Assembly (NCBI GenBank): GCA_964188305.1
Contig: OZ076886.1
From: Podarcis bocagei
Taxonomy: Eukaryota
Length of the DNA: 64,000 bases
Strand: one strand, 5' to 3'
Shown here: in pieces, positions 1 through 8,153 of the stretch
Layout of the letters: every line of letters starts with the position of its first letter
Numbering within the stretch: the first letter of the stretch is position 1
Made by a program: the position numbers and the translations under genes
Notes under the pieces: generated by a model
The model's database searches: none
What the model saw: the letters and a program-made list of their open reading frames with translations, nothing else
What the model was told of the DNA's origin: nothing

Positions 1-2509
1 CATGCAGTTACACAGTGGACATTATAAGTGTGTGATAACACAGTGGACAGTGTGGTTCTTGCAGCCAAATATATCCATGTACTGTAATAGGATTTATTTT
101 CTCTTCTGAAAAGAACCTAATTGCTGCATCTTCACTCTTTGTATGCATGTGCTTGCATGTGTGTTCCCAGAAGCTATAAGCCCATCCTTCTCCAACCCTC
201 CAAAAAGGCTGTTCCTCTAATTGGGATTTCAGTGGACATGCATGGTGGCAGTAGTGGAGGTGGCTCTGTGACACATACAATGGGGTGAAACCAGTTTGTT
301 AAAACTGCCATGCTCAGATCATGCAGGACAAACAAAGAATGATATTCATGCAGAGGGAAAGAGAGACAGGCAGGGGACCCACACCCATTTCCAGTTGGAA
401 ATATATGCCCACACAGACCATTAGGAATGGTGCCACACACCATTCTCTCTTTCCTATTAACCACCTGTATTCCAAAGTTCACTTCCTACATTACTTTTTA
501 AGCCTATTCTAAGGTCAATATCTTAAGTGGACAATCTTTCAGCCAACACATTTAGCTCTTTTGTTTAAACCAATATATATATTTCAGCTCTGCCCCTTGC
601 CTTTTGAATCTTATTCTAGGACACAATGATGCAGTGAAAGTAAACTATTTAACCGGTGGAAACCTGTGTCAGACTAGATCTAGAAACACCCCCCCCCCCA
701 GTTCCACTGTCTCTAGTCCTCCAAACCTCTTTTGCCTGCCCATTTCCTTTCAGACAAAATCCACAGTCCTAGCTCAGCTTTCTTCTTGTATCCTACTTTC
801 TTCAGTTCCATTCCATGTCTCCACCTACAAATTTTATTGCATTTTTTCAGTCCACTCTACTTTGCCCCACACTTTTTATTCATCCTGTCTCTTTTGGCTA
901 ACAGTCCTAGCACTCTCCTGCCCCAAACATACACCATACACCTGCATCTTGATCTTACACATTGTAGAATTTCTTCACTGCCGCCTCCTCCTTTTCTTTT
1001 TTGTCTCAACTCCCGTTGCTGCTTTTTCCTAGCTCACCTACCCTTCCTTCAGATTCCCTGCTTTCAGTCCATTTCCTACTCTGTACCATTCATTCTGCCT
1101 CCCTTCTTCTGAACACTTTATCACTAAGCTTCACTACAGGCCACTGTCAATTTACCCTCCCTCAGAAAAGCTGGACTTTAAGTAGCAATGTCCTTTCAGC
1201 AACTGAATATTTAGATCATTGTACCAAGTCAGCCAACCAGTATAGGAGGCATCACTGTGTCTGTGATGTGTGTCTGTTTCAATTTGATTTATATTTATTA
1301 TATATATGTCTGTTTCATTTTGAAGAAGTTTTCTCAACAGATTCCTCTTGAGATTTTGTTAAATATGTGAAACGGACGTACATGCAATCTTTCAAAATTA
1401 ATGTCTACCCTAATCTTAAGAGGAGTATCGGTGTGTGTTAGAAAAGTAAGACTGAAAGTGGCTCAGAGAAATAAAATTGAGGATTTCTCTTTGACTCACC
1501 GTCCACAACTGACTCTCAGGAAAAGGGATGTTAATATCCCTCTCAATACTCCTAAATGGGCTTGGGCTAATTTCCATAGTTATAATGATATTTTACTTCT
1601 TCTAAGGGATTGTTCTACCTCAACTGACCAAAGCAGAGATTGTCTGTGCAATGCTGAAAGTGTATGGAGAATCTTAATATCGCTGAGAGGACCTTAGGGT
1701 CAGTTCATGTGTGAGGAAATGTGTTTGCGTGTGTTGTGTTTAGGTGGTAAGTGGATACCCAGCTAAAGTTGTATGCATTAAGGGAAGGTTAAATGTGAAA
1801 AGTTTTGAGTGAATGGGCATGCCTGTGCATGCAGAATGAAGCTGGGGGTGCAGGGCTTTTCTGTACTTGTTCAGATAGCTATTGACAAGTGGGATTTTTA
1901 GGTCTTCTATTTGACTGCGCACACACTGCAAAAAGTATGTGCTTGGAGGTGATGCCAGATGATATGCAAAGTATCTGCAGTATTTCAACTGTGGTGGATG
2001 CTCCACCCATGCAAACTGTCATCAGGTATTGTATGTCATCAAGGAAGGCACTTGCATGTTGAATTCCCATCCCAAGTTTTCCCGCAGACAGGAACTGACA
2101 CTGGCCCTGGGTCAGAACCCAGCGACTTGCAGATACAGCTTTCTGTCTACCACCATATCCTTTTAGAAAGCCTATCCATACTGATGCAAGTCTTAGATTA
2201 AATGCAATCACCTCTTTAGAGATTGGCATCACCAAGGCTGCAGTATTACTATACCATATCCCTCAATCAATCAATGTTTATTATGGCAAACAGCCAGCAT
2301 ATATACCACATCCCTGCTATGGGGTTACTGGAAGCCACATGTGAATCTGAATAAAATAAGTGACACAATATGGGGTAAGTGGGGGGTCTAAAAGCGGAAG
2401 CTGCCCAGTAAACTGCAGGCATCTTTGGCTCAAAAGATCATGCAATGCGCCAAGAAGATGCTTTTGATTAATGTAAGGCACTTAGGCTTGAGAAAGTAAT
2501 CAAACCAAC

Positions 2510-2515
2510 CGGATC
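2510..2515 (-). CDS. CACNA1A: alternative microexon e31a orthologue (6 nt, GATCCG = Asp-Pro), IVS3-S4 linker
   Basis: ctctccatctcaatgtttgcatctag|GATCCG|gttggt, phase 0. It differs by one base from the mammalian NP exon as I recall it (AATCCG). UGC and YCAY motifs lie upstream. Confidence 0.8.
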
Positions 2516-2517
2516 CT

Positions 2518-2760
2518 AGATGCAAACATTGAGATGGAGAGGATCAGAGAAGGTCAGGGAAGGGTGGGTGTTTTAATACCGCAAGTTGAGTTCCAACCAG
2601 CAAACGGAGAAATGCAGAAGGCAGTGATTTCATTTTTGGTGATGGGAGAGGGATCAGGGCAGGGAAGTTCAGAAATATTCATTAGCATGGACACACAGAC
2701 CAGTTCATGGATGGACAGATGGATTTTTCATAGTGCATTTTGATTGGATGACATTTTCAG
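2518..2760 (-). promoter_or_regulatory. putative splicing-regulatory region upstream of e31a (NOVA YCAY cluster, UGC motif)
   Basis: Multiple CCAT/TCAT/TCAC motifs on the transcript strand (plus strand atggatggacagatgg, ggatga, gtgatgg) and a TGC just before the AG. Confidence 0.55.
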
Positions 2761-5451
2761 AGGGTGTTGCGCCAAAATAGAACAATATAAAGAGACAGCA
2801 TGGAAAGAAGACAAAAGACAAAGTCATTATATATCATACATAGCCCTGGGGAAGGAGACCCCTAGCCCACCCTTCTCCCACACTCACCCCTTTCACCTGT
2901 CTTTCTGGAATTTAGGGAATCCATGACTTTAGCATTCTGATCTTCCTAACCAAAATATCTACACGTTTGGCTTTACCTACAGGCTTCCAGCATAAACAAA
3001 ACTTTTGTTGACCCACCCATATTATTCTGGGAGGTAAGTGAGAGAGGGAAACTGAGGCACATATTGGAACAGGGACTTCCATGAGTCAGTGCTATTAATG
3101 AAAGTTACTTACCAACACAGTTCTTCAAAACCCATCTGTGAGGTCACTTCTTTGAGTCTGAGCACTATGTGTCCTTAGACTACCACCTTCTAAAATGTGA
3201 AACTTGTTGGAGTGACCTAATTTCCCCATCTTTCAGCGTGGTAAGTACTCAAAGAAATGCTATATGAACAAAGTTGCATAATACGAAGTTGCAGTGTTCA
3301 AAGAGTTTGGGCATTCAAAGCAAAGCCAGGTACAATTACAGGAAGGCCCCTTGTAATTCAAGCTACTTGTAGGTAACTTTCACTTGCTCTTAGAGCAGCC
3401 ATACAAATGGCCATCCAAGCATACTGGAAATGTGTGGAAGCCTAACTACTTGGAAAAGATCACCCATATACGAATAAGTGGCAGAACAAATGTACACCAC
3501 AGCTGTAGTAAAAAAGACAACCTAGCAACCACAGGGTTGAAATACCTACTGTGTTCTAAGCAGAACGTATGGGTTCATTTTAAATCTCCGTTGGGTGGTG
3601 GGAATTTAGATTGGGAATCCCACTTCCCATACAGGCCTTTCCCATATGGGACTGCTAATCTAATTATAAAAAAAACAACAACAGAAGCCTAAACTATGGA
3701 AGATCCTGATCATGAATCTCCTACATCAGGTCTAGCTTGGCCCCAAGATAAAAGACTGAAAAAAGGCATAATAACCCAAAATGGTATTGGTGGTTGTACA
3801 ACTTGCACTAAAGAAAGAGATCCATTCAGAATGTGGAGCACAATGAGGAGTTCATACCTATTTATACTGGAAGTTTTGCATTTTATCTCCTAACTGAAGT
3901 TCTGCCCTTGGATGGTGGTGGGAGATTTCCTGCACCTCTAGATGTCTTTTTATTGTGCATTTATGATTTGTACTCATGATTATGCTGGGGCAGCTACTCT
4001 GCTTTTGATACTGTTCACGCTTACAAAAAAATTGGGGCAGACATATTGCTTCGTTTCCAGTCTATCCATGTCCTGTAGTGTCTTGCCAAAATCCTGTAAC
4101 TTTTTATACCACAGCTGTTCAGGGGGTAGGGTGTTGGTCCCATTTTTGTTGTGTTATAGTGCAAGAGTGCCCCTCCAGAAAACACTGGGAAAGAATCGTA
4201 GAATAACTTTAAAAAAACAGAAGATGTGCGGCTGGTACAATATAAATCCACCACTAATGCACTATTAACGCATCAATGACATGTTGCAGAACACATATGC
4301 AACCCCCCCACCCACAGACTATTGGAGGGTAGGAACCGAGGCTGCTATGGAACCAAGTGGTTAGCGTCCTGAGCAGCAACACTCCACATTGCAACATTTT
4401 GCTTTGACAAGACACTTTGAAGGCCAGCACTAGCTTTTGCAATCCTCATTTGAAGTGTTCTCAGTACATAGCTAAACTGTTCAGTGTTTCCTGTGTAATG
4501 CCATTCCTTTGTCAAAGTAAATTTAAATAACCCTTTAGGTCAAACAGAAATGAATCACTATGCCATATTGAGAAATCTAGAAGAATGGGTGTTCTTTAAA
4601 CACCCTCATCACCTGTGAGGAAATGTGCATAAGCAATATATATGCTCCCTTGGTACACATACAGTGCACACACATGGGCATTTTGGAATAGTGTGCCATG
4701 CATGCATATTCTCTGGGAAAGACCTTTCCTGATAATTTTAGTAGTTCACATGTTTCTTGTTCTAGCCAAAGGCCATGACAGAATAATTTTAGTAAGAAAG
4801 AGTTTGCTGTGCTGTGTACTTCCCAAGACCAAGTATAAAGAAAATTATCACCATCAAAGCGTTCTGGACAAAATTGACAGAAGGATTTTGCAGTTACTGT
4901 AGGCAATTGGAAACAAGTCTCTCCATGCCTGGTTGTGCCATAAATACTTATGGAAGCTTTTCCAAGGTTAATGCCTCAGTTTCCCTGGTCTATTCCTGCT
5001 GGAAGCACATTGGCCTTTGAATGGGTGGGTTGTTCTGCCAATTCCCTGAATTTGTCATGGCTCTGTATCATTTCAGGATGTTCATTCAGATATCTTCCCC
5101 TGCTCCACATCTCACTGTGGGCTAAGCTACTTATGACATGGGAGATCTGTGATCAAATCTCCCTAAGCTCTTTTACTTTTCTTCAAAGCTACTTAAAGGG
5201 ACTCTTATTTTGACTAGGGAACCAGCATAAGGAAGCAATATTGGAGGAGAGAAATTCTCTCCATGCTGTTTCCTTGAGTGAAATTACCTCTCAGCTGGTT
5301 TTAGCCCAGCTGAGGCAAAAATACAAGTACAATATGGGCAATGTGCTTTTCCCAGTAGCTTAGAGGGAGAGACCTTTGTTTGAACAGGGAAACTTCACGG
5401 TGGTATGAAGGACTCACATGGAATTGATCCTTCAGTATGGCAGCACTGAGA

Positions 5452-8057: not shown

Positions 8058-8153
<96 letters not shown>

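Follow-up and report, generated by a model that had tools for sequence, protein, structure and literature searches.

A candidate six-nucleotide microexon in CACNA1A

The window, that is, the whole 64,000-nt stretch of DNA analysed here, carries part of CACNA1A on its minus strand (Table 1). In the intron separating exons 31 and 32 of this gene, the hexamer GATCCG is preceded by catctag and followed by gttggttt, and it encodes Asp-Pro in frame, in phase 0-0. Exon 31 ends in phase 0 with the residues TEFG and matches human Cav2.1 (PDB 8x90_A) at 28 of 28 residues. Exon 32 maps outside the window, past its low end (G000:C2:88844542-88844426), which defines a phase 0 intron of 9,527 nt in which the hexamer is located 5,554 nt from exon 31 and 3,967 nt ahead of exon 32. 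The correspondence of exon 31 with 8x90_A and the close match between the exons in the window and those of Lacerta CACNA1A identify the host gene as CACNA1A and not a paralogue; the paralogue loci are separate, on C20 and C5. A preliminary description of this DNA had placed tag-GATCCG-gttggt in intron 31 in phase 0, and this is borne out by both the minus-strand readout (2515-2510) and the mapping of exons 31 and 32.

Table 1. Features of the candidate e31a microexon and of the preceding exon of CACNA1A, in window positions.
Feature	Position	Strand	Basis or remark
Candidate CACNA1A microexon e31a, GATCCG, Asp-Pro	2510..2515	-	Same insert in RefSeq models P0365, P0380, P0490
CACNA1A exon 31 (IVS3); contains the Glu that corresponds to agatoxin-receptor Glu1658	8070..8153	-	Splice-signal scan; role of Glu as reported in PMC2229484
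5' splice site GTTGGT, identical to the donor of the paralogous CACNA1B microexon	2504..2509	-	
3' splice site TAG	2516..2518	-	
UGC motif at -9, putative SRRM3/4 enhancer	2522..2524	-	Motif role as reported in bioRxiv 10.1101/2024.09.17.613571
Two branch-point-like pentamers, CTGAC/CTGAT, at -42/-32, in a pyrimidine-rich tract	2543..2557	-	Pattern match
Stretch devoid of AG, 330 nt from one AG to the next	2518..2845	-	
Pyrimidine- and YCAY-rich element resembling one upstream of the CACNA1B microexon; putative Nova site	2710..2828	-	Local alignment

Across the whole intron, including the part outside the window, 50 hexamers presented the AG-N6-GT arrangement expected of a microexon of this length. 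Only three of them encode an x-Pro dipeptide (DP, WP and VP), with DP encoded once and Asn-Pro not at all (0/50). The possibility that a true AATCCG orthologue lies elsewhere in intron 31, inside the window or beyond it, was explored, and no such sequence was found among the 50 candidates.

The same intron of placental CACNA1A harbors e31a, the Asn-Pro splice site associated with P- versus Q-type channels, a 6-nt micro-exon reported to undergo alternative splicing in the human brain (PMC4317164). The lizard hexamer is like placental e31a in gene, intron, length (6 nt), phase (0) and the identity of its second residue (Pro), and differs from it in the first residue, which is Asp instead of Asn, one base apart. 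In the human protein NP_000059.3, NP sits between flanks that are identical to those of the lizard. Taken together, its position and frame, its splice signals, its uniqueness in the intron, the presence of a twin in CACNA1B and the occurrence of DP in annotated squamate and marsupial proteins make it very likely that GATCCG represents the CACNA1A cassette microexon e31a in this lizard. Its inclusion in the transcript would extend the outer S3-S4 loop of the fourth Cav2.1 voltage sensor by Asp-Pro. The earlier proposal of an e31a orthologue encoding Asp-Pro in the IVS3-S4 linker is thereby upheld at the level of sequence comparison. For the complete reading, which encompasses an e31a orthologue, an old DP state and a DP insert acting much like NP, we estimate a probability of roughly 80%.

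A search for RNA data sets covering the exon 31-32 stretch listed none. Four of 16 RNA or RNA-guess runs were checked on exon 31 and all four returned 0 records, so that they are silent on splicing. The exon itself is already known and DP is already present in public RefSeq models, and the finding is in this respect not surprising. A literature search returned no paper on the DP form, which unread supplements and subscription papers may hold, and no e31a entry was present in the supplements of two zebrafish microexon papers, or, for PMC12626420, in the part of the supplement that was searched.

Splice signals and upstream elements

The pyrimidine tract preceding GATCCG ranks second among the 50 AG-N6-GT candidates of the intron, and both this tract and the upstream UGC, located at -9, confirm what the preliminary description had reported. 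The 330-nt AG-free stretch is the longest of 4,510 such stretches on the minus strand of the window, where the next one spans 151 nt, and ranks second within 124 kb of CACNA1A. The donor is non-consensus at +3/+4, and RNA folding of the acceptor region (z = 0.43) was no better than that of shuffled sequences. A length of 3n, a UGC between putative branch point and AG, and a long AG-free upstream region are features common to the lizard candidate and to neural microexons of the SRRM3/4 type, from which mammalian e31a departs in being reported as Nova-repressed.

The enrichment of YCAY motifs upstream of GATCCG is modest. The 300 nt upstream contain 11 of these motifs, a number reached by 3% of intron windows, and the 200 nt upstream contain 8, reached by 5.7% of windows. 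The earlier mention of YCAY motifs hence stands for this broader region, but not for the nearest 100 nt, in which 2 motifs are found, as many as 52% of windows reach, and no enrichment is apparent.

A matching microexon in CACNA1B

The use of exon 31 as a query against the same genome (G000) yielded 4 matches, CACNA1B on C20 among them. The e31a microexon of CACNA1B was identified as tag-GACACG-gttggtt (L009 2990-3400, minus strand; G000:C20:9397812-9397807), encoding Asp-Thr, which is the dipeptide found in squamate CACNA1B models. Out of 1,750 possible cross-intron pairs of AG-N6-GT hexamers, the pair formed by CACNA1A GATCCG and CACNA1B GACACG is the best, agreeing at 10 of 12 free letters, and the next best pair agrees at 8. 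The CACNA1B e31a, which encodes Glu-Thr in placentals and Asp-Thr in most other tetrapods, is like the CACNA1A hexamer in its position, its tag-GA..CG-gttggtt frame, its acidic first residue and its upstream element. It differs in belonging to a paralogous gene, in having Thr and not Pro as second residue, and in the lack of a UGC near the AG, the closest being at -35. Its AG-free stretch spans 246 nt and is only the second longest in its own intron.

Regions of approximately 120 nt upstream of the CACNA1A and CACNA1B microexons align locally with a score of 49, a value attained in 1 of 598 pairings of random windows and in none of 1,200 shuffles; this match involves in part low-complexity pyrimidine sequence, and global alignment does not line up the two exons. 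The long AG-free stretch, the absence of an Asn-Pro rival among the candidates of the intron and the matching CACNA1B microexon thus support the identification of GATCCG as the e31a orthologue. The matching intron of CACNA1E (L011; G000:C5 near 94673250-94672940) spans only about 300 nt and contains 2 AG-N6-GT candidates, neither of which is e31a-like.

The dipeptide in annotated vertebrate proteins

The residues present at the e31a position were scored in 443 proteins containing both flanking exons, out of 550 collected (107 were dropped). This is a non-random set, made up of the best 120 of about 2,000-4,000 matches per search and with isoforms repeated, and one of the search queries carried DP so that inserts would rank first. 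RefSeq models are in addition predictions, and some of their microexons may stem from the alignment of human proteins and not from RNA.

Among the matches listed, 292 of the 443 scorable proteins present no insert. NP was observed in 57 of the rows listed, all of them placental, with tenrec and sloth included. DP was observed in 5 of the 443 scorable rows among these matches, corresponding to Gekko japonicus (XP_015274358.1), Lacerta agilis (XP_032995645.1) and three isoforms of Sarcophilus harrisii. Two of the Sarcophilus proteins, XP_031803527.1 and XP_031803528.1, differ solely in DP, which is present in 3 of 14 cluster members listed and in 0 of 8 Monodelphis rows; as judged from these models, marsupial Asp-Pro has a single species behind it. 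The contrast originally drawn between lizard Asp-Pro and "mammalian" Asn-Pro hence holds for the lizard Asp, but its mammalian side must be narrowed to placentals, as seen among the listed matches, given that the marsupial Sarcophilus has DP. We infer that the DP of gecko, Lacerta and devil is encoded by the orthologous hexamer.

Among the matches listed, no two-residue insert was found in bird, turtle, crocodilian or amphibian CACNA1A, most squamate rows are likewise without one, and no CACNA1A row from a monotreme was recorded. The insert-free reptile, bird and amphibian rows may reflect under-annotation or real loss. In a 50%-representative protein library, no DP or NP row was present in the 31 scorable of 150 proteins listed.

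Other dipeptides were observed among the matches listed. For CACNA1A, these comprise SP in coelacanth and NL (7 rows), NA (11 rows) and QP in teleosts. For CACNA1B, DT was found in 10 rows (platypus, four squamates, two crocodilians, a bird, a frog and Chelonia), ET in 14 rows (placentals and two turtles) and DL in coelacanth. Among these matches the first residue is labile: coelacanth has Ser, teleosts have Asn or Gln, and CACNA1B has Asp or Glu. We infer that residue one of the insert is a tolerant position.

Several additional inserts were recorded. A single Met occupies the e31a position in 19 of the teleost Cav2.1 rows listed (P0024, P0160-P0182 and others), which suggests that one teleost copy has a microexon of 3 nt. 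Five of the listed rows, all from Pipistrellus kuhlii (P0433-P0435, P0447, P0448), present NS, with loss of the otherwise constant placental Pro. The VS inserts seen in 10 protein rows were rejected as real exons, since they fit a putative read-through of a GTAAGT donor, such as the one present in the lizard. The 1 match to a degenerate microexon pattern in a metagenome contig (L008), which shows no wider similarity and no channel exons, was attributed to chance.

Age and polarity of the first residue

A state shared by a gecko and a lacertid is placed by the tree near the squamate root, and the presence of DP in both therefore places it there. On the evidence of these protein models, DP is at least as old as squamates and certainly predates this lizard lineage, and it is thus not special to this lizard.

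Parsimony analysis restricted to amniotes requires 1 step with ancestral Asp and 2 with ancestral Asn. The inclusion of teleost Asn and coelacanth Ser results in a tie (3 v 3), and the further inclusion of the CACNA1B paralogue yields 4 v 5 in favour of Asp under unit costs and 5 v 5 under codon costs. Over 10 settings, Asp was favoured in 4, a tie was obtained in 6 and Asn was favoured in none (0/10). These reconstructions lead us to lean towards DP as the ancestral state of amniotes and NP as the state of placentals.

The main competing interpretation accepts the same exon but takes Asn as ancestral, with Asp gained twice, in squamates and in marsupials, through one A-to-G transition each. 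This history is somewhat less probable, yet credible. It is in agreement with the Asn that begins the NL (7) and NA (11) teleost rows among the matches listed, with the coelacanth Ser, which is one base off Asn and two off Asp, and with the ties in 6 of 10 parsimony settings, but it demands 2 steps instead of 1 within amniotes and is at odds with the paralogue CACNA1B, which starts with Asp from coelacanth to platypus and the inclusion of which makes unit-cost parsimony favour Asp.

Predicted effects on gating and toxin binding

NP insertion in the mammalian channel has been reported to cut omega-Aga-IVA affinity about 10-fold (PMC2229484, PMC2311392). The NP site adjoins Glu1658, and replacement of this Glu by Lys has been reported to raise the Kd for omega-Aga-IVA from 160 nM to 33 uM (PMC2229484). 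The mammalian background invoked in the preliminary description, regarding the effects of the 6-nt NP exon on agatoxin affinity and gating, is in agreement with these reports. The ET insert of Cav2.2 has been described to slow both activation and gating-charge movement (PMC2311404), and Nova2 is reported to favour e31a skipping in Cav2.1 and Cav2.2 (PMC5633781 and the text of PMC12149502, although the table in the latter gives exon 31 as "+", at odds with its own text).

By extension from mammals, e31a inclusion would be neuron-type-specific, with Nova repressing it through upstream YCAY clusters and SRRM3/4 perhaps aiding it through the UGC. A longer, proline-bearing S3-S4 loop would be predicted to slow or shift sensor movement and to disturb the site for gating-modifier toxins, and DP would lengthen and kink this loop like NP. 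Asp, like Asn, promotes turns ahead of Pro, so DP would probably behave similarly to NP. The available forms (no insert, NP, DP and SP) constitute a natural one-residue series, in which loop length and proline can be weighed against side-chain charge as the cause of the P/Q difference.

Regarding charge, omega-Aga-IVA is reported to bind via an arginine-rich patch (PMC12737659), and an added Asp beside the toxin-binding Glu is therefore expected to help, and not hinder, a cationic toxin. On this logic, the added charge points away from toxin resistance. Zebrafish Cav2.1 has moreover been reported to be relatively insensitive to omega-Aga-IVA (PMC7939481), so that mammalian pharmacology need not apply and a baseline lizard sensitivity is not to be assumed. 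Caution is warranted in extending P-/Q-type toxin pharmacology to reptiles or marsupials.

A more far-reaching scenario, which we consider unlikely, would have NP as a placental invention and DP as the ancestral form retained by reptiles and marsupials, with one more acidic residue next to the Glu that binds the toxin. Inclusion of the exon would in that case weaken agatoxin block much less than NP, or strengthen it, and the Nova-type element would have been kept in CACNA1A and CACNA1B since their duplication.

There is very little to commend the proposal that Asp is a lizard adaptation altering sensitivity to dietary spider gating-modifier toxins. The location of the insert directly after the Glu discussed above, the magnitude of the effect of NP on toxin affinity and the presence of DP in two lizard lineages would be in line with it. 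Nonetheless, the view of Asp as a trait of an arthropod-eating lizard is not supported: DP is shared by gecko, Lacerta and the Tasmanian devil, many insect-eating placentals, such as Myotis, Rhinolophus, Echinops and Manis, retain NP, the additional negative charge would be predicted to promote toxin binding, and zebrafish Cav2.1 is already relatively insensitive. Hardest of all to sustain is the interpretation of the hexamer as a chance intronic match or as a relic no longer spliced in this species, which the abundance of AG-N6-GT hexamers in the intron, the weak donor and the lack of an insert in most squamate models among the matches listed would allow, but against which stand the 330-nt AG-free stretch, the CACNA1B twin with its identical donor and common upstream element, and the DP of a Lacerta model whose exons closely match this genome.

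Other CACNA1A splice features

A 12-nt candidate microexon, cag-GAGCAGCACACG-gtaaagt, was observed at positions 21163-21152 of the window (minus strand). It encodes SSTR in frame and corresponds to the e24a cassette in the IIIS3-S4 linker, the counterpart of which reads SSSR in Lacerta and STAR in devil. The longest AG-free stretch in the 124 kb, spanning 365 nt, ends at tag-ggcag-tag (L006 about 5590, minus strand; G000:C2 near 88791590), a site that presumably resembles the alternative 3' splice site of the final CACNA1A exon, which sets C-terminal length.
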